DNA from: a virus
Virus record (IMG/VR): IMGVR_UViG_3300042560_001826
Location: 41,122 to 105,121 of that record
Length of the DNA: 64,000 nucleotides
Reading direction: 5' to 3' (one strand)
Of the stretch, positions 2,757 to 51,144 are shown piece after piece. Position 1 is the first letter of the stretch; the number at the start of each line of letters is the position of its first letter. The translations under genes and the position numbers were made by a program. The notes under the pieces are model-generated. The model had not been told where the DNA came from and did no database searches. It saw nothing but the letters and a program-made list of their open reading frames with translations.

Positions 2757-3045
2757 TCAAATATGGCAAAGATCTGCTGTTTGTCTCAGAGATAAAAATT
2801 CTTCGTATTGGTTATCATACAACATTGAGCATATAAAATATGCAAAAGAGGGTTGCAAGTCGTGTAGTGTAAAAACGGCATGTCTTGCGAACGCTCTTAG
2901 TCAAGAGTTTTTTATTGGAGTAAACGCTGGCATCTCGGAATGGGATTATTTAAATAAAACATGGAAAGAGGTGAAAAGTGTCAGAAAAACCAACTGGTCA
3001 AGAAGTGATGCAACACTTCGTAAGCTGTTGCAAGAAGCGAAGTAA
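2740..3045 (+). CDS. whiB: WhiB-family transcription factor (start reassigned to ATG 2740)
   Basis: W..A.C ... AK..C..C.V...C ... GVNAG, the four-Cys WhiB pattern. Confidence 0.75.
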   Translation: MKNSHNQIWQRSAVCLRDKNSSYWLSYNIEHIKYAKEGCKSCSVKTACLANALSQEFFIGVNAGISEWDYLNKTWKEVKSVRKTNWSRSDATLRKLLQEAK

Positions 3046-3289
3046 GTTATTCGTTCCAGATAGTCCTCGTCAAGAGCAGGTGTGTGATGCACTTGCTGGC
3101 TTCTATAATAGAGAAATATTGTTTGATGCAATTGATGAGTTTACAAAGGTAAATCCGGGACCGTTTATTATCTTTGATTTTGCAGTTCAATCAAAAAAAT
3201 ATATTGACCATGTTACATTAGAAAAGAAATCTAGGAATAACTTCCTTAATATCGTACAAGAAACCAAAAAGAGAATGGAGCAGGAGTGA
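2978..3289 (+). CDS. Hypothetical protein upstream of the helicase
   Basis: RBS GAGG; coupled to the helicase start. Confidence 0.6.
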   Translation: MSEKPTGQEVMQHFVSCCKKRSKLFVPDSPRQEQVCDALAGFYNREILFDAIDEFTKVNPGPFIIFDFAVQSKKYIDHVTLEKKSRNNFLNIVQETKKRMEQE

Positions 3290-4503
3290 ACTACGAAGTT
3301 AGGTTACTTAATGCAATTGTTGATAGCGGAAACTACATTGAGGCGATAAGTGAAGGCGCTGAAAATGTATTTCTAGAATACAGAGACATTTGGAGCTTTG
3401 TTGTAAAGCATCATGATGAGCATGGTAAAACCCCGTCAAAAGATACTATAAAGCACCACTTCCCAGAATTTGATTTTGTTTCAACTCCGGAGCCTTTAAA
3501 GTACTATCTTGATGAAGCAAAGCGTGAATCTCTTGCATATCAAACAAGAGTAATTGTTTCTAAGTCCAATAACATTTTAAATGAACTTGGTGCAAAAGAT
3601 GCGCTGTCTTTCTTGATGGAGCAAACATCAAAGCTCTATAAGTTCTCTAGCAGTCTTAAAGATAGCGATTTGGCTGGTGAGTGGCAAGATCGTGTAAAAG
3701 ACTTGCGTGAGCGTTCTGAACGCGATCAAAGTGATTTTATTGGCATCCCAAGTGGTATCAGTGTAATTGATAAAACATTTGGAGGTTGGCAACCGGGTGA
3801 CTTTATCGTGTTGCTTGGATGGACAGGGGTTGGTAAATCATTTATTGCAAGATTATTTGCAGTGAATGCATGGAGGGCCGGATATAGACCTTTGATTATC
3901 TCTCTTGAGATGAATAAACAACAAGAAGGTCAACGACTTGATACATTGCTAACTAATGGAGATACCTCATTTAACAATACCGACTTGGTTCGTGCAAATC
4001 CAGCAATTGTTGAAGCCTACGAAGAATGGGCTCAAAAAACATTTGAGGGCAAGCACCCAATTCATCTTGTTACATCAGAGGGGCTTGAGGCAGCAGATCA
4101 AATGATGGTGCAAGCCAAGATTGATCAATATCATCCTGATATTGTTATTCTTGACTATCATGGTTTGTTTGATGATGCATCAGGTGCCAAGACGGAAACT
4201 GAGAAAGCAAAGAATCTTTCTAAGGCATTTAAACGATTGGCTGTAAAAAATGCAGTGCCAATCATTGATGTTGCTGCAGTAACAATGTCTGAAGGTCACT
4301 CAGAAAGACCGCCAGAGCTTGAAGAGGTCGCTTGGAGTAAACAGTTGGCTTATGATGCTGACTTGGTGTTGGCTATCCATAGAGAGCCATCATCTGATTT
4401 ATTTCAAGTGGTATCAAGAAAAGTAAGAAGAGCAACGCATTTTGCATTCTATCTTAGATGGAATCTAGAGACCGGTAAATGGTCAGAGGAGTGGGATTTC
4501 TAA
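3286..4503 (+). CDS. dnaB: DnaB-like replicative helicase
   Basis: GWTGVGKS Walker A, ISLEM, ILDY, YDADLVL motifs. Confidence 0.9.
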   Translation: MNYEVRLLNAIVDSGNYIEAISEGAENVFLEYRDIWSFVVKHHDEHGKTPSKDTIKHHFPEFDFVSTPEPLKYYLDEAKRESLAYQTRVIVSKSNNILNELGAKDALSFLMEQTSKLYKFSSSLKDSDLAGEWQDRVKDLRERSERDQSDFIGIPSGISVIDKTFGGWQPGDFIVLLGWTGVGKSFIARLFAVNAWRAGYRPLIISLEMNKQQEGQRLDTLLTNGDTSFNNTDLVRANPAIVEAYEEWAQKTFEGKHPIHLVTSEGLEAADQMMVQAKIDQYHPDIVILDYHGLFDDASGAKTETEKAKNLSKAFKRLAVKNAVPIIDVAAVTMSEGHSERPPELEEVAWSKQLAYDADLVLAIHREPSSDLFQVVSRKVRRATHFAFYLRWNLETGKWSEEWDF

Positions 4504-4688
4504 TGGATAATATCGTTACAGGAGTAGCAGTTGATATTGAAACAATAGCAAGGTTAAGACCTTGGCTAGAAGATGAAGCAAAAAGAAAAAACGGATTCAA
4601 AGGGCCGACAAAACTATTTACAGATTATGATAAAGACAAGAACCTATTCAAATTTAAAATCGTATTCGCAGATGAATCTAAGGGATGA
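4503..4688 (+). CDS. Small hypothetical protein
   Basis: TAATG overlap with the helicase stop; fills the gap before the primase. Confidence 0.55.
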   Translation: MDNIVTGVAVDIETIARLRPWLEDEAKRKNGFKGPTKLFTDYDKDKNLFKFKIVFADESKG

Positions 4689-5568
4689 TATTGAGAGCTT
4701 TCTTGAGGAATATCATTTAGATATTCATTCCTCAAGCGGTTCTGAATATGTGATCTTTTGTCCATTCCATAAGAATGTAAATACGCCATCATTCTATATC
4801 AATTCAGGCACAGGATTGTGGCAATGCTTTAATCCATCGTGTGGTAAAAAAGGCAACTTTAGACAGCTGTATCGCCATGTTACAGGTCGCTCTTTTGAAT
4901 CTAAAGTCAAGCTTGATCCAGTAGAATTACAGAGTGTTATTGATGCCGGATTTATTGTTCAAAAGGAAAAAGATATTGATATCTCTGCAATAGGGGTTGA
5001 CTATAATAGTTTAGATGGCATTAAGAAAGTTCAACAGTTTATTGATAGAGGACTTAGCCCTAAGACCCTTCAGTATTTTGAGATTGGCTTTTCTGAAATC
5101 AAAAATAGAATTGTAATTCCTGTAAGAAATCATCAGTATAAGATTGTTGGCCTTATTGGTCGGGCTATATCTAAAGAGCAGGAGCCTCGCTATCTCTATA
5201 ACAAAGGTTTTAAAAGAGCAGATGTATTGTTTAATATTCAAAATGCAAAACATTACACAGATGTAATTGTTGTTGAAGGCAGTGTTGATGCAATGAAGGT
5301 TTATGAGGCTGGATTCCCAAATGTTGTTGCTACACTTGGTGCTCAAGTTTCAAACTATCAAGGCTCTCTGCTACGAAAATATTTTGACAGCATCACTATT
5401 TTTTCTGACGCAGATGACGCTGGCAACGCTATGCGAGATGCTATAATGGGTTTGTGCAGGGGGAAAAAAATCTACTCTGCACAAATATCAGCAGGATGTA
5501 AAGATCCTGGTGATATGAATATAACAGAAATAACAAACAGTATAAACAGCAAAAATAACATCATATAG
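4672..5568 (+). CDS. dnaG: DNA primase (CHC2 Zn finger + TOPRIM)
   Basis: CPFH...PSF...WQCF..SC; VVEGSVDA; FSDADDAG; KDPGD. Confidence 0.9.
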   Translation: MNLRDDIESFLEEYHLDIHSSSGSEYVIFCPFHKNVNTPSFYINSGTGLWQCFNPSCGKKGNFRQLYRHVTGRSFESKVKLDPVELQSVIDAGFIVQKEKDIDISAIGVDYNSLDGIKKVQQFIDRGLSPKTLQYFEIGFSEIKNRIVIPVRNHQYKIVGLIGRAISKEQEPRYLYNKGFKRADVLFNIQNAKHYTDVIVVEGSVDAMKVYEAGFPNVVATLGAQVSNYQGSLLRKYFDSITIFSDADDAGNAMRDAIMGLCRGKKIYSAQISAGCKDPGDMNITEITNSINSKNNII

Positions 5569-5576
5569 GAGAAAAC

Positions 5577-6221
5577 ATGACATTCACATCAGTTAAAACA
5601 CTAAAAGACTTGGAGAAGCAAGTCGCCCCTACACAGGGTAAAAGCGGAGCGAAGAAGTTCTTTTCTCTGCAATCAGGAGATTCCTTCAAGATTAGATTCT
5701 TGCAGGAGCTTACTGAAGATAGCACAAACTACAACGATAAGGCTGGAACTGGAATTACGGTCCCGGTTATTGTTTCGCCAGTAAACTGGAAATGGAAGGT
5801 TGCTTCCACATCCTCTCTGGAGAAGTTCAATTATCGTTGCTGGGGTAGCGAGCAAGCTGTCCATGATAAAGCTTGGAGAGCAAAGCCGCACTTGCTTATC
5901 AATGTTGCCGTTGAGGTTGAGCCAAACAAATGGGAAGCCAGAGTTTTGGATACGACATTCAATCAGCGCCACATTGGTTTGACTCTTTTGGAATACGCAA
6001 AGGAGTTCGGAACAATCACCGACCGTTACTATAAGTATTCCAGAACAGGTTCTGGTGCTTCAGACACTAATTACAGTCTTATTCCGCTGGCAGTTGGTGA
6101 ACCTAACGATCAAATCAAGGAATTGACCTTGCATGATCTTGGCAATGTTTATATGACACTGCCTTACGAAAAGCAACAGGTGTACCTGACAACTGGTGAA
6201 TTGGCTAAGGATAGCTGGTAA
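5577..6221 (+). CDS. Putative single-stranded DNA-binding protein
   Basis: FFSLQSGDSFKIRFL and SRTGSGASDTNYSLIP motifs; sits between primase and polymerase. Confidence 0.65.
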   Translation: MTFTSVKTLKDLEKQVAPTQGKSGAKKFFSLQSGDSFKIRFLQELTEDSTNYNDKAGTGITVPVIVSPVNWKWKVASTSSLEKFNYRCWGSEQAVHDKAWRAKPHLLINVAVEVEPNKWEARVLDTTFNQRHIGLTLLEYAKEFGTITDRYYKYSRTGSGASDTNYSLIPLAVGEPNDQIKELTLHDLGNVYMTLPYEKQQVYLTTGELAKDSW

Positions 6222-19855: not shown

Positions 19856-20406
19856 TAGGAACCGAAATTGAGCCAGCATCCAGAACAATTTTGGATGATC
19901 TAGCAGACATAGAGCAGGCCGGTCTCCTGCATGTAAAGGGGTATTCTAATCACGAAATTAGCTCCTTGATGAGTGTCTCTGCGGATAAAGCAAAAGGCAT
20001 GATTACTGAATACAAGAAGATACTTAATCGTCAAGCTGAATCGGATCCGTATTTCTTAGAGAAAATCCAATTTAATACAATCAAGGCTCTGCAAGAATTT
20101 GATCAATTGAGCAAAGAAGCTTGGGAGACTATTAATATTGCTACAGATCACGGCATGGTCCCGGCAAGAATTCAAGCTATTAAATTAGCGGCAGAAGTTG
20201 CTACTAAGAAAGCGCAATTGCATAAGCTTATGGGTGGCAATCAAACAGACGGGCAATATATTGCTAGAATGCAGAAAGCAGAGAATGTTAATCAAATTCT
20301 TTCTAAAGTTTTAAGGGATGTTATTTCCAAGCATCCTCAGATTGCCGAAGAGGTCAGGAGAGAATTGGAAATTGCATTTGAAATCATGAATGATGGTGTT
20401 GAATAA
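19834..20406 (+). CDS. Putative terminase small subunit
   Basis: N-terminal HTH (GYSNHEISSLM), helical body, directly upstream of the large terminase. Confidence 0.55.
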   Translation: MSDIEPVVGTEIEPASRTILDDLADIEQAGLLHVKGYSNHEISSLMSVSADKAKGMITEYKKILNRQAESDPYFLEKIQFNTIKALQEFDQLSKEAWETINIATDHGMVPARIQAIKLAAEVATKKAQLHKLMGGNQTDGQYIARMQKAENVNQILSKVLRDVISKHPQIAEEVRRELEIAFEIMNDGVE

Positions 20407-20470
20407 AGAGACGGAAAAATTATCACATAAAGGTTTATGTAAAGAGACGGAAAAACTCTCACATAAAGGT
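20404..20470 (+). repeat. Two direct repeats TAAAGAGACGGAAAAA-(5 nt)-ACATAAAGGT, period 36 bp
   Basis: Copies at 20404-20434 and 20440-20470. Confidence 0.9.
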
Positions 20471-20609
20471 GTAAACTCACTTGTCTATGAGGTGATCCTG
20501 CTCTAAGCTTACAGCGGTGTAAGAATCCATATGTGTAAGATTACTCATTCGTAATCTTGTCGCCGCGTAAGTTTTCATATTTCATAGTGTATACTATTAA
20601 GGGTGGCAA

Positions 20610-23864: not shown

Positions 23865-24281
23865 ATTAGGTTTTTTATAAAGCCCCTGTAGTGCTTTATA
23901 AAATATACTAAAATTTGCTAAAAAATTGGCTAAACGCCAGCGGTAACATTACATGGTCGTAATATTACTTGAGACCTTCGTTGTTTTTAGCTAATTCATT
24001 ATATCGACTGGATCGACAAGCCGATCGTCAATTTTTAGCTAATCCTGGCGGTTATGCCTGGATCTTAACTAATAGATAAATTGACCCATTGTTCGCACCT
24101 ATTGCCGGATCCAAAAGAAATCTCAGAAATCTATATTTTGAGGTTTTTTCTTACCGATTCCCCTGATAGTGTGGTGGCACAAATGACGACACATTATCTT
24201 ACCAATAGATTGCCTATTGTGTACGGTATTGTGTCGTTATTTGTGTTGTATAAAAAATCAGATACGGGAAAGGATTAGGCT

Positions 24282-29918: not shown

Positions 29919-30231
29919 TTATCAACAATTACTAATCAACATGAATGAATCATGGAGAAAAGATACTGTTTGCAGTAAAACAAAAACGATTGATTGGTTT
30001 TCTGATGAAAAAGATCAAATCAAAATGGCAAAAGAGGCTTGTAGAAAATGCCCTGTTGCCGATAAATGTTTAGAGTTTGCTGTGCGGAATAAGGAAAGAT
30101 TTGGTGTCTGGGGCGGGTTTACGCCAAGAGAAAGAAATAAAATTACTAGACATCTTGTTTCATTAACAAAGGAGGAAGCCAAAGATTTGGTGATCAAATA
30201 TGGAAACCAAGTATTGTCTCAGACTAGTTAA
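29902..30231 (+). CDS. whiB: WhiB-family transcription factor
   Basis: W....C...AKEACRKCPVADKCLEFA...FGVWGGFTPRER. Confidence 0.92.
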   Translation: MKAVTDYQQLLINMNESWRKDTVCSKTKTIDWFSDEKDQIKMAKEACRKCPVADKCLEFAVRNKERFGVWGGFTPRERNKITRHLVSLTKEEAKDLVIKYGNQVLSQTS

Positions 30232-43521: not shown

Positions 43522-44465
43522 CCAAAGTGGCCAGAAAACGCACTACGGAAGCGTACAAGGCTTTTTAAGTGCCAATGTGGTCGGGAATTGATTAATATCT
43601 ATTTATAAGAACTGGAGAGAGATAAAGAATAAAAGCGGGTCTTAATTATCTTTCAGTATAGAGATAGAGAATCTATAGAGAGACTAGAGAATGAATAAGG
43701 CTGCGTCTACCTGAAATAAGTAGGATATGTCCCTTAGAAAATGTTGTGTTACGTCCCACAGTAAAGAGGCGAAAAGCGCGCAAATATTACGGTATTTTTA
43801 TTAAATACTATGGTGTTTTATAAAATATAGGGCAAAAAGCCCTTAAAATGCATGAAAAAGCTTCACTTTTGCACAAGCTGGTATAAATATGTATGTATCT
43901 ATCTCTCTATAGGTATAAAGAGACATTTAAACCCCGCCATAAAGGTATCCAGGAGATAAAAGAATGGGTAATAGATAAATTCATTATAAATTAGTTCACT
44001 AATGAACTTATAGAACTTATCATTAAACTTCTCATAGAACTGATCATTGAATTCAGGCGGGAATAAGCCTACTGATTACAGCACTGTAATTTGTAAGGAG
44101 CTAGACTAACCTTTGCCCCGGCAAAAAGAGACGGTAATGGATCCGTCATAAAGGTATTACTTTTTGTAAATCATTACATAATAAAAAAGGTGATTTTTTT
44201 TATGTACTCTAAGTAATATTACGATGGTAATGTTACCAACCGTAATATTACACCTGGCAGATCACCTGACTTCGTTAGGGAATGGATCGACAAAAGGCTA
44301 AAACAAATCCTGGGCGATAAGATCGTCAAATATATCTTTTTTATATTTCTTTCAGGTAAGGTTGGTTTTTTTTAGATCAGCCGATAGCGTGAGTGTATCG
44401 GTTGCGAAACTGATGAAATAAATAAAAAAATAAAAAAATCAACAAAAAAGGAAAAAGGTAAAACA

Positions 44466-44786
44466 ATGGCTACGGAAAAGAATGACGATTTTGAAATCGT
44501 CAATGAAGCGGATTTGGAATTCGCTTCTCGTGGAAGAAAATCAAACATTAGCGATAGCGAAATCGCTAAGGTAAAAGAAACATTGAAGAAAAATCCAAAT
44601 GGTTGGGTTTTGTTCAATGGTAAGGCTATTCCTAATGGAATGACTAACGCTAAGGATATTCGTAACCATAAGGCTGCGAATTCCGCAACGCTTAGGGCAT
44701 TGGCTAAGAAATTGGGAATGAAAGCAGAAATTCGTTGGCATAAGGGAACTGTTCCAGCAGTTCGCTTTTCTAAGGTTTCTGCTTAG
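44466..44786 (+). CDS. Island family A small basic protein (A1), putative DNA-binding
   Basis: FEIVNEADLEFASRGRKS...LRALAKKLGMKAEIRW. Confidence 0.8.
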   Translation: MATEKNDDFEIVNEADLEFASRGRKSNISDSEIAKVKETLKKNPNGWVLFNGKAIPNGMTNAKDIRNHKAANSATLRALAKKLGMKAEIRWHKGTVPAVRFSKVSA

Positions 44787-44817
44787 TAATTAGACAATAG
44801 TTTTCGCAACTGTTAGG

Positions 44818-44853
44818 GAATGGGTGGGGTAAAACCCACCCATTCTTTTTTTT
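44818..44853 (+). terminator. Rho-independent terminator
   Basis: GAATGGGTGGG/CCCACCCATTC stem plus T8. Confidence 0.9.
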
Positions 44854-45314
44854 ATTTGTGTCGATCCCGGAATAAAGATAAAGAATTACGTTACCGTAAT
44901 CTTACAGATCCGCATTAGTGATTACATAAAGGATCTTCCAGGGATAAAGAAATAGATTAGAAAAATGCTTACTAAATTATTTAGGTACGGTGTAATATTA
45001 CCACGGTCGTAATGTTACAAAATTCTAACATTACACCCGCCCCGTAATATTACTTACTAAGTAAGATTACATAAAGGCTTACATAAAGGTAATATTTTAT
45101 ATAAAAGAAATGCTTACTCAAATGCTAAAAGAAGTCATGTAATGTTACCAGCCGTAATATTACCGAACTCCGGTCGAAAAAAAAACCTGGGCTTACGGCT
45201 GTGTAAGCTTTGACTTGGTGAGAGCCAAACTTACACAGCCGTAAGACACCTTCTGTTGCCCCGCCTAGTTAGGGCGGCGATGGTCAATAATCCATCGGGG
45301 ACGATTCACCTAAG

Positions 45315-45617
45315 TTACTTAGACGTAACGAGACGAACGGTAGGAACACCGTCGGTGGTGAAGGCAATGCGCACCTTCACGCCGACAGACTTCGCGCATG
45401 CCCTGAGCATCGCGCTCACGGCAGCCTTGCGAGTCTTCGCGTTCGTACCCTTCGGGTCAACCTTGTACGAAGGCAGAGCCAAAACTTTCCCAGCGGGAAG
45501 TTTAGCGATAGCCTGCGCAAGCTTCGGGTCGGCGTTTGACTTGCGTCCACGCTTAGCGAAACTAAGGTCGCTCTCGTTCACGATCTCGAACTCGGGTGTA
45601 TCGTTGGTCTTAGCCAA
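45315..45617 (-). CDS. Island family A small basic protein (A2)
   Basis: TTG start after AAAGGAG; FEIVNESDLSFAKRGRKS...LRACAKSVGVKVRIAF. Confidence 0.8.
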   Translation of the reverse strand: MAKTNDTPEFEIVNESDLSFAKRGRKSNADPKLAQAIAKLPAGKVLALPSYKVDPKGTNAKTRKAAVSAMLRACAKSVGVKVRIAFTTDGVPTVRLVTSK

Positions 45618-46154
45618 ACGTTACTCCTTTGTAAGAAAAGGTTACGGGTATGGATTAGACAGTAGTACCACTACTGCCCGACGCTGTAAGTTTTGATCTA
45701 GTGTGTTCGTTACCTTACACACGGGTAGGATTCGCTGACTGCCTACCTTCCCAAACTTACCGCCGTGTAACGGTAGTGCGACACCTGAACCTAGCCGAAG
45801 TGATCCCGAAGGATCACCGTTGCTCGCCCCGTAATTTTACGGGACCGCCTACTAGGTGACTCAGGTACGGGTCAACGCACCGATAAGGATTCTAACAGAT
45901 GATCGGCAAAAGCGGGCGGATAGTAAAACGGCTCAAATAAAAGACTACTGAATAGGTCGATAATAGGGTAAAGATAAAGTCCGGCGGCCCTGTAATCTTA
46001 CAATTAGACTTTGATAAAGTTCCAGGACCGTAATCTTACATTGGAAAAATGTATTAAACTAATCTTACATAAGTGTAATGTTACTGCGGGCGTAATCTTA
46101 CGGTGAGTAAGGTTAACGCCCGCGTAATCTTACGCTAGTAATATTACATAGAGA

Positions 46155-46206
46155 AAATAAAAAAAATAAGTCGATAGCGCCGGGGCTCTTGCGAACCCCG
46201 ACGCTA
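46155..46206 (-). terminator. Rho-independent terminator for A3
   Basis: TAGCG.CGGGG stem (46175-46206) followed by a T-tract on the minus strand. Confidence 0.75.
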
Positions 46207-46225
46207 CCTACTTGGCTTGGGGGAG

Positions 46226-46510
46226 TTAGTCTGCCAAGATGACTTGTGGCGTACCGTTGGCACTCCAACGGATCGCAACCTTCTTGCCTGCCTGCTTGCC
46301 TGCCTGACGGATTTGGGCAGATACCTTAGCCTTCTCCGTCTTAGCCTTCGGACTGTTGGGGTTCACGGTCATTCCCGTGAGTTTCAGTCCTTGACCCTTC
46401 TTGAGCTTGGAAATTGCGCCTACGAGGGCAGGGCTCACGGTGGACTTACGCCCACGCTTGGAAAATTCCAAGTCCTGCTCGGAGACAATCTCAAAATTGT
46501 CTGTTGCCAT
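46226..46510 (-). CDS. Island family A small basic protein (A3)
   Basis: FEIVSEQDLEFSKRGRKS...IRQAGKQAGKKVAIRW. Confidence 0.8.
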   Translation of the reverse strand: MATDNFEIVSEQDLEFSKRGRKSTVSPALVGAISKLKKGQGLKLTGMTVNPNSPKAKTEKAKVSAQIRQAGKQAGKKVAIRWSANGTPQVILAD

Positions 46511-46700
46511 TGTTGTGGTATTCCCTTCTGAGCCTTACTTAGATTTGGGGCTCCGTTGTTGTTTAGAACACTATCCAATAGGGGAAAACGACGCAAGTAT
46601 GCGAACAGTCAAAAAACGCTGTATTTATTGGGGTTTTTGAGTGTGTGTCGTGAGTCACACGGTAGAAAAATGGAGATTTCCATAAATTACACGACCCTAC

Positions 46701-46714
46701 CGAACAAGTGTTTG
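46701..46714. promoter_or_regulatory. LexA-type box CGAAC-AAGT-GTTTG
   Basis: One mismatch to consensus; intergenic, upstream of A3. Confidence 0.5.
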
Positions 46715-46923
46715 GTGAGGTATTGTGAGATTAGATCCCATAAACTTTCTTGTGTGTAAAATTACATTTACGAAAGAGTACTAAATTTTTATTACATGTC
46801 AGTAATGTTACAGAGGGTGTAAGTTTTAGTCCCCCCAAAACTTACACCCTTCGTAATATTACCTAGATGAGCTATAAAATTACACGGGCCGGTAAGCCCG
46901 TGTAACTTTACTGCCGTGTAATA

Positions 46924-47280
46924 CTAGGCTGTTGCCAAAACGCTAATGGCTTGGCGTATCGGATACCCATTCTGGATAAATTGGTGGCGTATATCAACAG
47001 GCACCTGTGTAAGTTTACGCATCGCCTCATCTTGGGCATTTACGAGGGTAAGCATTTCCGCCAAATATTCCATAGCGGTATGATTAGAAACTAACGGTAA
47101 ACCGTGTTCGGTCATTTCCGCGAGCTTATCTAACGCGCCTGTAATTTTATCGGAGAGGTCATCACCGATTTCCTCGCGCCCGATTTCCAGAATGATACCG
47201 AGGTCGTGGAATATTAGGGATCGTGTTCTCGTAGCTTTACTAGTGAGAATTACGCCTTCCGCAAATCGTTCTTCGTTCAT
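46924..47280 (-). CDS. Hypothetical protein (island cassette)
   Basis: ATG 47280 after GGAGG; TAATG-coupled to the upstream peptide. Confidence 0.65.
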   Translation of the reverse strand: MNEERFAEGVILTSKATRTRSLIFHDLGIILEIGREEIGDDLSDKITGALDKLAEMTEHGLPLVSNHTAMEYLAEMLTLVNAQDEAMRKLTQVPVDIRHQFIQNGYPIRQAISVLATA

Positions 47281-47399
47281 TATTTTTTCCTCCATAGTTC
47301 TTCGTAAAACGCTCGCCTCTTTTGTTGCCAGCGTGTAATTTTTGGGTGGATAATAAATGCTATTATTACTGACAGTAGGAATATCTTGATATTGGTCAT
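47280..47399 (-). CDS. 39 aa membrane peptide (not in the ORF track)
   Basis: MTNIKIFLLSVIIAFIIHPKITRWQQKRRAFYEELWRKK. Confidence 0.5.
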   Translation of the reverse strand: MTNIKIFLLSVIIAFIIHPKITRWQQKRRAFYEELWRKK

Positions 47400-47596
47400 A
47401 CTTCCATTTTACAAAACTTACACAACCAATACAAGGATCACATTTTCCATAAAGGGTAAGGCCTAGTAATCTTACACACTAAAAGAATGAGGCTTAGTAA
47501 TATTACACCTGCCATACCGGTGCTCCATAAAGATCTAATTATGTAATATTACTGAGCTGTAATAATTGTTGCTAATGGTAAGATTACGCGATCACG

Positions 47597-47610
47597 CGAA
47601 CAAATGTTTG
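47597..47610. promoter_or_regulatory. LexA-type box CGAAC-AAAT-GTTTG
   Basis: Upstream of the B1 promoter. Confidence 0.5.
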
Positions 47611-47701
47611 GTCGGCCGGTGATCGTCGATCGTGCCTATTGTTGCGATCGTGTATGCTTACTATGTCGGCAATTCCGCCGACACTCACGAAAGGCAAGGC
47701 A

Positions 47702-48118
47702 ATGAAGGCAAAGGCAAAAGCGTTCGCAAAGGCGATGAGTGTTCTCATCGGTAATGCGAACAAGGTACGCGCCAAAAAAGGCGTGAAGCGTATCTACGAC
47801 AGCGCGGTACTCAATACCGCTATTGGTACGGCACTACAAAAAGGCGTTTTGCCAAAAGGCGAGAACGCTCGCCTATGGTGCTTCGCAAATGATGCCGTTG
47901 TTGTAGATGTTCGGACTATCGTTCACGAAAACATCGGTGATGAAGCATCGCACGAACGACCCGAAAATACTGTTCGTGCGAGACTCATCACGCTTGCGAA
48001 ACTAAACAAAGACATCACGAAGCTTGCCTATGTTCGTTATCTCACGAACGGTACGCCTAGTGCCGATGATGCGAACAACGACGACGCTTACAAAGTTTTC
48101 ATTTTCCGTAAGCGTTAG
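47702..48118 (+). CDS. Island family B basic protein (B1)
   Basis: RBS GAAAGG; KKGVKRIYD...VDVR..V...RPENTVRARLITL...KVFIFRK. Confidence 0.78.
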   Translation: MKAKAKAFAKAMSVLIGNANKVRAKKGVKRIYDSAVLNTAIGTALQKGVLPKGENARLWCFANDAVVVDVRTIVHENIGDEASHERPENTVRARLITLAKLNKDITKLAYVRYLTNGTPSADDANNDDAYKVFIFRKR

Positions 48119-48130
48119 AAACAAAAAGAG

Positions 48131-48163
48131 TGACGGGGCGGAAACGCCCCGTCATTTTTTTTT
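48131..48163 (+). terminator. Rho-independent terminator
   Basis: TGACGGGGCG-GAAA-CGCCCCGTCA plus T-tract. Confidence 0.9.
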
Positions 48164-48275
48164 GTATCCGTTTAGTCGAGTAGCCCGGACTAATTAGATT
48201 TCGTTCCATAAAAGGTACACGCTTGTAAGATTACAAAATCGTACTGAATTTTTATGCATAATGCTGCATGATTAT

Positions 48276-48355
48276 GCGGGTGCGTCTCTACGCAAAGCTG
48301 TGAGCTCCACCCGCGTAATCTTACACCGTAAAGGGTTAGCTTTGTAATGTTACAC
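48276..48355. repeat. ~80 bp structured repeat, copy 1 (copy 2 at 49578-49660)
   Basis: GCGGGTG...CACCCGC branched stem, GTAANNTTAC, CCGTAAAGGGTTAG, GTAANNTTACAC. Confidence 0.85.
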
Positions 48356-48434
48356 AGCATGACTTGCATCGACTAATAGATCGTGTAGACTATTGGTATC
48401 GGCAATCCTGCCGATCATCACGAAAGGTTACACA

Positions 48435-48641
48435 ATGTCCACATTTGAAACACACGACGAGATAATCCAGAAGGTTCGTACCTTCTATCGGGAGACCTAC
48501 AACATGTCCGAATCAGCCCTGCCATGCCATAACTGCATGTTTGAGCAAGAGCCAGACACCGAATGTGGCTATGTCTGGATAACCTGCGAAGCCGACAACA
48601 TGAATAATGATTCAGACGGTTGCAATTGGGGTAATGTTTAG
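48435..48641 (+). CDS. Small acidic Cys-containing protein (island cassette)
   Basis: RBS GAAAGG; CHNC...C...C...C; promoter TTGCAT-16-TAGACT. Confidence 0.65.
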   Translation: MSTFETHDEIIQKVRTFYRETYNMSESALPCHNCMFEQEPDTECGYVWITCEADNMNNDSDGCNWGNV

Positions 48642-48657
48642 TTACAACTAAGTAAGT

Positions 48658-48695
48658 AAAGCCCGGTCCTAACCCCCTGGGGCCGGGCTTTATTT
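48658..48695 (+). terminator. Rho-independent terminator
   Basis: AAAGCCCGGTCC/GGGCCGGGCTTT stem plus T-rich tail. Confidence 0.75.
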
Positions 48696-48836
48696 ATTAT
48701 TACCTTATAGTAATCTTACCTATAATGATCTCCATAAAGATAATGAATACTAAACTTACTTATTAGTAATGTTACACGCCAACCGTAACATTACCGGGCT
48801 ATCGGTTGCCCCGGTCGATCAAGGGTAGAAAGAGAA

Positions 48837-48872
48837 AGAACCCCACCTACCCTTTCGGGTAAGTGGGGTTCT
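48837..48872 (-). terminator. Terminator hairpin for B2
   Basis: AGAACCCCAC.TACC/GGTA.GTGGGGTTCT stem with a pyrimidine tail on the minus strand. Confidence 0.75.
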
Positions 48873-48885
48873 TGTGTTCTGTTCG

Positions 48886-49404
48886 CTACTTCGTGCGAAC
48901 GATAAACACTTTCTCGCACTCATTAGTCACGCCGTTCTCAAGCCATGACTCTTGAGCCATTCGTGCATCAACGGCCCAGATAACGGTGAGATCGCCCAGA
49001 ATGAGCTTACTCTTCTGCCAACTGATGAGCCTTGCACGAACGGCATTGTCGGCACGGTAGTTCGTAGCCTTACTGCACACTTCGCTACGAAGAACGAACG
49101 GCACTTCGTTCTGGAGACAGAACTTCAGAAGTTGTGCTTTGCTCTTCTTGACGGGTTCGCCGTTCGCATCAACAGTCCATGTCTCAAGAACGGGTTTCGT
49201 TGATGCAATAGAAACTGCTCGCATCAGAAGTTCAGCACCGTCATTCGTTGAGAATGGCTTTACTCTCTTCTTCTTATTCTTCTCATTGCAAGAAGAAAGT
49301 TTCTCAACGGACTTCTGAAAGAGTCCCGACGCTTTCGCGCCGAAAGACTGAACTTCTTTCTTTCTACCTTTCGCTACTTTCGTAGCCTTTCTCTTCTTCG
49401 CCAT
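48886..49404 (-). CDS. Island family B basic protein (B2)
   Basis: KKRVKPF...GAELL...RADNAVRARLISW...KVFIVRTK. Confidence 0.78.
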   Translation of the reverse strand: MAKKRKATKVAKGRKKEVQSFGAKASGLFQKSVEKLSSCNEKNKKKRVKPFSTNDGAELLMRAVSIASTKPVLETWTVDANGEPVKKSKAQLLKFCLQNEVPFVLRSEVCSKATNYRADNAVRARLISWQKSKLILGDLTVIWAVDARMAQESWLENGVTNECEKVFIVRTK

Positions 49405-49577
49405 TGTGCTCTTACCTTTCGTGATAGTGGGCCGAATTGCCCACTAGTAGAAGTGTAACAGAACTAGGTGAGATTACAACGATCCAATTTCTGCATTACA
49501 ATTCACACTCATGCATGATCATGCATAAATGATTAGGAAATCACACTAAATTGTAATCTTACATGCATAATTATTCA

Positions 49578-49660
49578 GCGGGTGCGTCAGAAACGCGAAG
49601 CTGTCTGCTCCACCCGCCGTAACATTACGCCGTAAAGGGTTAGATCTAGTAACATTACAC
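49578..49660. repeat. ~80 bp structured repeat, copy 2
   Basis: Stems identical to 48276-48355; loops differ. Confidence 0.85.
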
Positions 49661-49714
49661 GGAAGTAAGGTAATAAAAACCCCGCCCGGTTTTTAATCGA
49701 GCGGGGTTCTTTTA

Positions 49715-49816
49715 TTACTTGCGATTGCGGAAGTAAGCTAAAACGCTTACGCTGAACACAACAGCAAGAATGAGCGAGTAAGAAACATACTCACTAATGT
49801 TGAGGGTAAGTTGCAT
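49715..49816 (-). CDS. 33 aa membrane peptide (not in the ORF track)
   Basis: RBS GAAAGGAG; MQLTLNISEYVSYSLILAVVFSVSVLAYFRNRK; terminator hairpin at 49678-49708. Confidence 0.6.
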   Translation of the reverse strand: MQLTLNISEYVSYSLILAVVFSVSVLAYFRNRK

Positions 49817-50043
49817 TGTGATCTCCTTTCTTACTATCCAGCCTACAAACATTACACAGATAATACAAGCACCTATTACCTCATAAAGTGTAAGGTATCG
49901 TAATATTACTCATTAAAAATGAGACACTCATAGACTCTAATAGCGTTGGTGGCGTAATGTTACACACACTAAAAATGAGAGAGGGATCTGTGTAAGGTTA
50001 CTTGGTGTGTGCCCCGGTCGATCGGGCCGGGGGTACATAGCAG

Positions 50044-50069
50044 AACCCCCACCCCTTGCGGGGTGGGGG
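50044..50069 (-). terminator. Terminator hairpin for B3
   Basis: CCCCCACCCC-GCAA-GGGGTGGGGG on the minus strand. Confidence 0.7.
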
Positions 50070-50089
50070 CTTGCGGGGGATTGGGGGTG

Positions 50090-50539
50090 CTACTTGGTCT
50101 TGCGGTAGAGCAGAACCTCGTAGGCTTGGGGGTTCTTGGGATCAATCGCAGGGTTCCCCTTGCCATTGACTAGCACCCTCAGATAGCCCACCTTGCCGAC
50201 CTGACTATCTACCTTGGTGAGGCTCAGTAGTCGGGCGTTGATGGTGAGGTCAGGTCGCTTGAATAGGTTCGGGGTGAGGTGGCGCACTACCTGACGGACA
50301 TCCACCCTGACGGTATGCGGGCTAGTGCGTACCTCGTGCTTGGTGATAGCGGGCAGGCTCAGGGCTTGGGCTACTGCGGTGAGCAGATAGTTAGCACCCT
50401 TATCCTCGTAGTGACGCTTGACCCCACGCTTGGCGTTGAGGTCACGCTTGGCGGTGCGCTTGGCGGTAAGGGTGCGCATAGTCTGCGTCACCTTAGCCTT
50501 GCTCACCCCCTTGCGGTTGGTCTTGGTCTTGGTTGCCAT
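50090..50539 (-). CDS. Island family B basic protein (B3)
   Basis: KRGVKRHYEDKGANYLL...VDVRQVV...RPDLTINARLLSL...EVLLYRKTK. Confidence 0.78.
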   Translation of the reverse strand: MATKTKTNRKGVSKAKVTQTMRTLTAKRTAKRDLNAKRGVKRHYEDKGANYLLTAVAQALSLPAITKHEVRTSPHTVRVDVRQVVRHLTPNLFKRPDLTINARLLSLTKVDSQVGKVGYLRVLVNGKGNPAIDPKNPQAYEVLLYRKTK

Positions 50540-50764
50540 TGGTACTGCCTCTCTGTGCTTGGGCTTGGCGGGATGCCTCACCTCGTTGATAACTACCTTA
50601 GCCGATACCTAGCCCTATTCCTACCTCGTAGCCTTACCTCGCAAGATTACCTATCCGACAGAATTACCCTAAAACCCTTATTCTATGCGGGTTCTAGCGT
50701 CGATCCTATGACGAAACTAATCGTTACCTAATCGTAACATAACAGATCACCCTATTGACCCCCC

Positions 50765-50778
50765 CGAACACAGGTTCG
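50765..50778. promoter_or_regulatory. Perfect LexA-type box CGAAC-ACAG-GTTCG
   Basis: Matches CGAAC-N4-GTTCG; TTGACC just upstream. Confidence 0.6.
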
Positions 50779-50852
50779 CCCTAGGGGTTAGATATAGCAT
50801 AACCCTGCATAGAAATATACTAAAATTTTTGATACAATGGCGCGGAATGGCT

Positions 50853-50897
50853 TTCTAATGAAATTGCTTCTAATGAAATTACTTCTAATGAAATTGC
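50853..50897. repeat. 3 x 15 bp tandem repeat TTCTAATGAAATT(G/A)C
   Basis: Units at 50853, 50868 and 50883. Confidence 0.9.
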
Positions 50898-51144
50898 CGG
50901 GAATAATTGCCGGGGTTAACTCTTCTCAGACAAAGGCGGGGTTGGATAGACCTATCTCGCTGGTAGTGGTGGGCGAGATAGGCGCTCACAAAACCGGGAT
51001 CTCCGGATCGGGATCACCGGTTGGAGCAACCCCGTAACAAGGAATCCGGGGTTATCGGGCGTAACTATAACGGTCCCAAGGTATTGGGATGCCCGATGGA
51101 AACTATTTCACATAAATAATTTCCGGGATTTATTCTACCAGATA

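Follow-up and report, generated by a model that had tools for sequence, protein, structure and literature searches.

An island of single-gene cassettes and palindromes

We describe an island of small, stand-alone genes in a phage genome whose spacers are filled with copies of one short palindrome, GTAANNTTAC. The DNA analysed (hereafter the window) is a stretch of 64,000 nucleotides, bases 41122-105121 of the 105,121-bp IMG/VR virus record IMGVR_UViG_3300042560_001826, which is rated 100% complete. From left to right, the island holds A1 on the + strand, A2 and A3 on the - strand, a pair of open reading frames (ORFs) of 123 and 39 amino acids (aa) on the - strand, B1 and a 68-aa ORF on the + strand, and B2, a 45-aa peptide gene and B3 on the - strand (Table 1). 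These are the transcription units, in the mixed orientations, that an earlier reading of the letters alone (the sequence-only reading) had set out. It had also grouped six products into two paralogous families of small basic proteins, and this grouping stood: pairwise identity was 38-47% among the three family A paralogs and 33-35% among the three family B paralogs, and all six proteins have an isoelectric point (pI) of 10-11. Terminator-like hairpins numbered 20 against 7.4 expected, in agreement with the proposal that most units carry terminators of their own. Consensus sigma-70 promoters were not enriched (11 vs 13.4 expected).

We counted 41 palindromes in the window, compared with 0.90 +/- 0.88 in shuffled sequences. 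The whole genome holds 43, and 38 of these (88%) lie within window positions 44213-50001, close to the earlier manual count of about 37. The motif is hence far from equally dense over the genome, and because 88% of the sites sit in one 6-kb block, a genome-wide protective coat, one of the functions proposed earlier, is unlikely. Coding sequence makes up 49% of the island and contains one of the 38 copies (P = 3e-10); we observed the same exclusion in all five islands compared, the window and four relatives (P = 3e-10 to 4e-5). The sole copy within coding sequence, at 47009 in the 123-aa ORF, corrects the earlier statement that the genes are free of the motif. Clusters of 3-7 copies occupy nine of the ten spacers, and a lone copy (45831) stands between A2 and cluster 3. 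The claim that every spacer holds such a cluster therefore holds for nine of them and fails upstream of B3, where no exact palindrome was found in 50540-51144.

The stretch upstream of B3 is the single spacer without palindromes, and within its 560 non-coding bp a 15-bp unit (TTCTAATGAAATTRC) is repeated three times in tandem (50853-50897). We also noted that both flanks of the island are poor in ORFs, with none of at least 40 aa in 43522-44465 (~940 bp) or in 50582-51144 (~560 bp).

In the whole record, the genome map places the island at 85.3-91.1 kb, hence internally, where a rightward replication block and a leftward gene block converge. No end repeats were found in the 105,121-bp record. 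The terminal, pre-early placement proposed by analogy with phages T5 and SPO1 was thus not borne out.

Table 1. Genes, palindrome clusters and other features of the window (window coordinates; the strand is given where it applies)
Feature	Position	Strand	Description
WhiB-family gene	2764-2940		39.6 bits
Outlying site pair	20535..20560		one exact copy and a near-copy 16 bp on; ~50-75 bp before terminase-like gene
Outlying exact site pair	23943..23968		16-bp spacing; intergenic, after gene ending 23864
WhiB-family gene	29953-30141		71.2 bits
[CG]ATAAAG	43938..49888	+	14 forward, 0 reverse copies in 43600-50100
CATAAAG copies	43938, 44147, 44925, 45070, 45082, 47448, 47526, 48733, 49882	+	
Cluster 1	44213..44251		3 copies, 14-15 bp spacing; upstream of A1
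A1, family A	44466..44786	+	106 aa, pI 10.0, GC 0.40 (low-GC paralog)
Cluster 2	44896..45163		7 exact copies; between convergent A1/A2 terminators; largest cluster
A2, family A	45315..45617	-	100 aa, pI 10.2, GC 0.56
Cluster 3	45992..46147		6 copies; between A3 terminator and A2 start; plus lone copy 45831
A3, family A	46226..46510	-	94 aa, pI 10.3, GC 0.54
Cluster 4	46756..46911		4 copies; upstream of A3
123-aa ORF	46924-47295	-	acidic; no family found
39-aa ORF	47280-47399	-	hydrophobic/basic; precedes 123-aa ORF; no family found
Cluster 5	47466..47587		4 copies; divergent spacer, 39-aa ORF/B1
Inferred B1 promoter	47653-47658	+	-10 TATGCT; leader hairpin 47664-47683
B1, family B	47702..48118	+	138 aa, pI 10.0
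Cluster 6	48225..48353		3 copies; upstream of F18 ORF
Inferred F18 promoter	48386-48391	+	-10 TAGACT; leader hairpin 48398-48415
68-aa ORF, family F18	48435..48641	+	acidic, Cys-rich; kept in L005, L006, L080
Cluster 7	48710..48794		3 copies; between convergent F18/B2 terminators
B2, family B	48886..49404	-	172 aa, pI 10.0
Inferred B2 promoter	49457-49452	-	-10 TACACT; leader hairpin 49445-49426
Cluster 8	49553..49658		3 copies; upstream of B2
45-aa ORF	49715..49852	-	membrane peptide
Cluster 9	49900..50001		3 copies; between B3 terminator and 45-aa peptide gene
B3, family B	50090..50539	-	149 aa, pI 11.0, GC 0.59; upstream without palindrome

Conservation of the palindrome and its association with family A

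Pooling 144 copies from the five islands, we found that the full site is a 12-bp palindrome, TGTAA-NN-TTACA, in which the central NN is free. The flanks show a preference for T at -1 (90/144 copies) and A at +11 (101/144), and start-to-start spacing peaks at 16-17 bp with secondary maxima at ~14-15 and 30-35 bp. Cluster 2 contains a run of five sites at 17-18 bp (44992, 45009, 45026 with one mismatch, 45044 and 45061), and this five-site core could be aligned across four diverged phages (the window, L005, L007 and L012). When the window was compared with its close relative L006, palindrome core positions were identical in 128 of 128 cases, versus 78% at NN, 84% in other spacer DNA and 87% in coding DNA (Fisher P = 1.3e-9), indicating that the core is under strong purifying selection. 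We considered and rejected a hairpin in RNA or single-stranded DNA formed between adjacent palindromes: their NN pairs are not complementary, and changes at NN between neighbouring copies drift with no compensation. Since NN varies in this free and uncompensated way, protein-DNA recognition is favoured over a hairpin, and the pattern argues for a selected duplex-DNA site for a symmetric protein.

No relatives were found by a DNA search of a phage collection. Through the A or B proteins, we reached eight viral contigs, and all eight carry 16-38 palindromes around these genes. Each has two or three A and two or three B paralogs in a largely conserved order, the islands adjoin the same phrog_3704 and 2OG-oxygenase genes, and the paralogs fall into orthologous sets. 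A paired-palindrome scan that made no use of the proteins arrived at the same loci, and one of them, L080, has 62 copies with three A and two B genes. No relative kept the genes and lost the lattice of sites; together with the independent scan and the invariant core, this supports the proposal that paralogs and lattice form one system.

The remaining signals of the palindrome scans were mostly spurious. The pair signature in viral contigs returned mostly single chance pairs, and the spacings in L074 and L037 are multiples of 3 and were read as coding repeats. A scan for triple palindromes in 185,579 species genomes returned tandem or coding repeats and one phage contig, with no cellular regulon-like array; the array of L140 lies inside a coding repeat. 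Two further, more distant lineages also carry the lattice. The first is represented by L163, a phage contig that had been binned as an archaeon. GRGRKPS is retained in its two distant A-like genes, and its 12 palindromes all fall within 2 kb around these genes, leaving the other 18 kb free of them; no family B member was detected anywhere in the bin. The second, L164/L165, is derived from a 90-kb contig and has two A-like genes and no B gene, with its 30 palindromes spread over 9 kb; in L164 the cassettes encode two WhiB-like proteins, a paralogous C family and an F9-like gene. These distant A-like proteins can be aligned with family A from end to end, and the B and C families are unrelated. 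Apparently distant B matches turned out to be a third paralog type of the same lineage. Family A is thus the only family common to all three lattice-bearing lineages, which makes it the only universal partner of the lattice.

L164 also contains a paralog pair of unknown family (1160-1690 and 3279-3758) and a pair of long WhiB-like proteins (4254-5060 and 5452-6150); paralog pairs are thus a general feature of lattice islands. In L007 (3074-3388), L009 (4985-5248) and L012 (4229-4474), a very acidic small protein (pI 4.1, with an Asp/Glu-rich tail) is encoded amid the A and B genes, and the basic proteins may have it as their partner or chaperone. One cassette difference separates the window from L006, namely a 223-bp insertion in L006 whose F9-family gene lies immediately upstream of the gene for the 45-aa peptide (49852; L006 2443-2703). 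In this single case the breakpoints are two similar ribosome-binding regions, not palindromes.

We then characterised the two families. Grouped at 90% identity, family A forms at least 200 clusters; a survey of 1.84 billion proteins, grouped at 50% identity, gave 136 clusters, and almost every member is a stand-alone protein 87-150 aa long. For family B, we counted 48 members. When all island proteins were scanned against Pfam and PHROGs, no match rose above noise. The AlphaFold model of family A (predicted local distance difference test score, pLDDT, 80) has a disordered N-terminal segment of 28 residues followed by a small alpha/beta domain. The disordered N-terminus is the best-conserved part, FEIV-x-E-x-DLEF-xx-RGRKS, with the RGRK(S/P) arm as the top-conserved segment. 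The family B model is confident (pLDDT 91, predicted template modelling score 0.86). Foldseek and VIA yielded no significant match for the A and B models (best Z 5.8 and 4.4, respectively), PDB profile searches gave zero matches for either, and the ESM Atlas held no named relatives. A homodimer prediction for family A scored 0.00 and was counted neither for nor against dimerisation. The likeness of family A to Lsr2/H-NS-type silencers, which use an RGR minor-groove hook, is limited to the short RGR-like arm; the Lsr2 domain PF11774 had no match in the genome, and family A has no Pfam match of any kind. P0280, a 1,753-aa protein matched by the family A profile, was a false lead, being a fungal NACHT-HEAT repeat protein.

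Within the one island, the GC content of the paralogs differs by up to 0.2 (A1, A2 and B3 in Table 1). Every relative has such offsets: A1-type genes at 0.35-0.40, A2/A3-type genes at 0.44-0.59, and the B gene farthest from the A genes at 0.49-0.63. The same offsets occur at the same positions in relatives with only ~30% protein identity, and this recurrence indicates that they are kept by selection and do not mark recent acquisitions.

Leaders, a strand-polar co-element and the host

B1, the 68-aa ORF, B2 and their orthologs (L005-L012) have a common 5' leader, in which a hairpin of 5-7 bp immediately precedes the ribosome-binding site; the hairpin is followed by ACGAAAGG and then the start codon. 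Compensatory changes occur in five of six pairs, and none of 500 shuffles reached the observed covariation score. The hairpin is confined to B-type genes and the 68-aa ORF, the A genes being without it, and it may serve as a transcript-start stabiliser or a translational operator. In 10 of 11 B-type leaders a TANNNT hexamer, usually after GTG, stands 5-7 nt before the hairpin, and we infer that these leaders are -10-only promoters with the transcript starting at the hairpin base (Table 1). The palindromes lie ~45-210 bp upstream of these putative promoters and do not overlap them; in cluster 5, their centres are at about -82 to -194 relative to the inferred B1 transcript start. An Rfam search of the island gave sub-threshold chance matches only.

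We also observed a second element, [CG]ATAAAG, which is about ten-fold enriched in the island and strongly polar. In six islands (the window, L005, L007, L009, L012 and L080) oriented by their A1-type gene, 93 copies were forward and 10 reverse. A palindrome very often follows the element at 16-19 bp, and the strand of the element does not depend on the direction of nearby genes: it precedes + strand genes, and at A2, B2 and B3 it is found past the 3' end, facing back into the gene. Two tandem copies of a composite, AAAGAGAC-N13/15-CATAAAGG, precede the terminase-like gene (20405-20470, with N13), and two more lie at the left edge of the island (43917-43946 and 44125-44154).

The two WhiB-family genes of the phage genome (Table 1) both score above the Pfam cut-off, and the nearest matches of its DnaE-type polymerase are from Streptomyces phages (38% identity). 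To our knowledge, WhiB proteins are confined to Actinobacteria and their phages, so this uncultured phage is probably an actinophage. An actinobacterial host would also explain the missing consensus sigma-70 promoters. No sigma factor or helix-turn-helix (HTH) regulator was found among the 40 larger window ORFs scanned (30 with Pfam, 10 with PHROGs), and Pfam revealed no HTH regulator in the island or among 30 mid-size window ORFs. The window ORFs scanned included no LacI-type protein, and neither an integrase nor an immunity repressor was seen in the window.

Readings of the lattice and known systems

Our favoured reading, to which we give an even chance, is that symmetric oligomers of family A bind the palindrome, and that cooperative arrays co-ordinately control and insulate the cassettes. 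We infer this role of family A, its action as a dimer and an effect that may be either repression or activation; as the only universal partner of the lattice, family A is the most likely protein to read the palindrome. Each single-gene cassette would be closed by a strong intrinsic terminator, with palindromes filling the spacers that make up about half of the island. Family A would be a new basic protein of ~95 aa whose invariant RGRK(S/P) arm precedes the small alpha/beta domain, and the 16-17 bp phasing would set several dimers side by side. Arrays of this kind, upstream of cassette promoters and between convergent terminators, would exert co-ordinated, probably switch-like control over the A genes themselves and over the remaining cassettes, which encode family B in the window and, in distant relatives, WhiB-like factors among others; neighbouring units would also be insulated from one another. 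The outlying pairs, found in two further intergenic regions, hint at a regulon that extends a little beyond the island, as expected for a regulator with few targets. The island could then be regarded as a conserved regulatory module of single-gene cassettes in a phage lineage.

Several observations weigh against this reading. Family A has no recognisable DNA-binding fold (its best Z is the 5.8 given above). The palindrome and family A would also be expected to occur together if A were simply a cargo gene that the island conserves, with no part in its regulation. For two of the clusters, which are placed between convergent terminators, there is no gene start in the vicinity. The sites upstream of B-type promoters do not overlap them and are therefore a poor fit to a simple repressor. 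The strand polarity of [CG]ATAAAG is not accounted for by the model. Finally, each half of the palindrome (TG-TAANNT) resembles the -10 context of the inferred promoters.

We also considered a bolder form of the favoured reading, which we hold to be doubtful. Family A would then represent a new class of sequence-specific DNA-binding protein, combining the RGRK arm with the small alpha/beta domain and polymerising over phased palindromes into a nucleoprotein lattice that would act as a conserved expression platform for regulatory cassettes that differ between lineages. [CG]ATAAAG would give this platform a direction, for example by blocking polymerases or forks from one side.

The resemblance of the half-site to a promoter can also be turned into an explanation of its own. 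The consensus -10 hexamer of Actinobacteria is TANNNT, and the palindrome halves match it, so the sites might be promoter-type elements: bidirectional polymerase sites, promoter clusters or a polymerase sink. The probable actinobacterial host, the lack of sigma-70 enrichment, and the (G)TG-TANNNT of the B-type leaders, which is the context of a palindrome half, all fit this idea. However, a spacing of 16-17 bp is too tight for a polymerase on every site, and the outer G/C and the T/A flank preference are conserved although a -10 hexamer needs neither. Moreover, nearly all other promoter regions of the genome are without sites, the inferred B-type promoters are separate from the palindromes, and clusters are present where no gene lies downstream. 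We regard this explanation as unlikely.

A host transcription factor, rather than a phage protein, might bind the palindromes; the phage would then either couple island expression to host physiology or use the dense array to titrate a host regulator. GlyR2, a LacI-type protein of Clostridium thermocellum, binds GTAAnnTTAC, so cellular dimeric regulators can read the site (PMC8457756); this shows that the site suits a dimer, and leaves room for a host factor as well as for family A. Neither A nor B has a known DNA-binding fold, which would also sit well with an outside binder. Nonetheless, three phage lineages of differing GC content and with different sets of cassettes have kept the site unchanged, family A accompanies it in every case, and the triple-site scan of species genomes met no regulon of this form in cells. 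We therefore rate a host factor as improbable too.

A mainly structural lattice, in which the basic proteins build a centromere-, origin-, packaging- or injection-control-type complex, would explain why up to five phased sites stand between convergent terminators, away from gene starts, and why half of the island is non-coding. A nucleoprotein complex of this general kind, with injection control as one of its possible functions, had been proposed by the sequence-only reading. The co-element, strand-polar regardless of gene direction, is likewise what a directional DNA process would lead us to expect. Against these points, the island is internal in a complete-rated record without end repeats, Pfam and PHROG scans placed no partition ATPase, replication initiator or terminase gene next to it, and the sites are scattered over nine separate spacers and do not form one cis-acting locus. 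The outlying pairs, in addition, occupy unremarkable intergenic DNA, in one case immediately ahead of a gene start. Such a role seems to us quite unlikely. Least probable of all, and very unlikely in our judgement, is that the spacers are mainly scaffolds for cassette swapping like the PeSLs of T4-like phages, composite terminator/promoter sequences that mediate exchange in hyperplastic regions (PMC4122927): cassette content does vary by lineage while the lattice and family A are kept, and every unit has its own terminator, but gene order is largely kept among relatives, the paralogs are old orthologous sets, the sole indel seen between close relatives (F9) breaks at ribosome-binding regions, and swapping would not alone keep 128 of 128 core positions while NN drifts.

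If family A binds the palindrome, as we favour, it would provide a new DNA-binding fold with a defined and very simple 12-bp site, in a system known only from abundant uncultured phages, probably of aquatic Actinobacteria. The density of sites, up to 62 in 8 kb, is far above that of known operator systems, and non-coding DNA takes up half of the island in a genome whose genes are otherwise tightly packed; this density points to cooperative, chromatin-like control of a few regulatory genes. The system can be tested directly with six small proteins and a short oligonucleotide (TGTAATATTACA), and might be a source of compact, orthogonal regulatory parts for actinobacteria.

We compared the island with four known systems. 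KorA and KorB of IncP plasmids and C1 of phage P1 act at one or two sites per promoter across the replicon and are HTH or ParB binders. Like them, the island would use one element-encoded protein with many palindromic or repeated sites to co-ordinate separately transcribed units, including that of its own gene; unlike them, it has neither one or two sites per promoter over the replicon nor a candidate binder recognisable as an HTH or ParB protein. GlyR2 has the same core, GTAAnnTTAC, but it is a cellular, sugar-responsive, LacI-type dimer with single sites upstream of 16 operons (PMC8457756), and phased arrays such as those described here are not a feature of its regulon.

The PeSL cassettes of T4-like phages have one early promoter and one stem-loop per junction (PMC2839356, PMC4122927). 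The island shares with them stand-alone small accessory genes bounded by conserved regulatory sequence with a stem-loop terminator, in a variable region between core blocks. It differs in having several strongly selected palindromes per junction, in the absence of sigma-70 promoter enrichment, and in the one indel examined (the 223-bp F9 insertion), which does not break at repeats.

The closest known system is that of the Cluster A mycobacteriophage stoperators. The L5-type immunity repressor has more than 20 copies of a single short site, placed at promoters and also in short gaps between genes, for which control of both initiation and elongation has been proposed; these sites are asymmetric 13-mers, bound by a monomeric HTH repressor, spread genome-wide and oriented with transcription (PMC9283540). 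As in that system, one site is repeated many times in the island, near promoters as well as in the spaces separating genes. Its site, however, is a 10-12-bp palindrome and hence without orientation, the co-element ignores gene direction, and 88% of the copies are packed into one 6-kb block at 3-7 per spacer and 16-17 bp. The candidate binder is also a small protein unrelated to the HTH immunity repressor of ~180 aa. On our favoured reading, the island would be a multi-operator phage regulon that relies on a new protein family and is unusual in how densely its sites are packed and how they are arranged.

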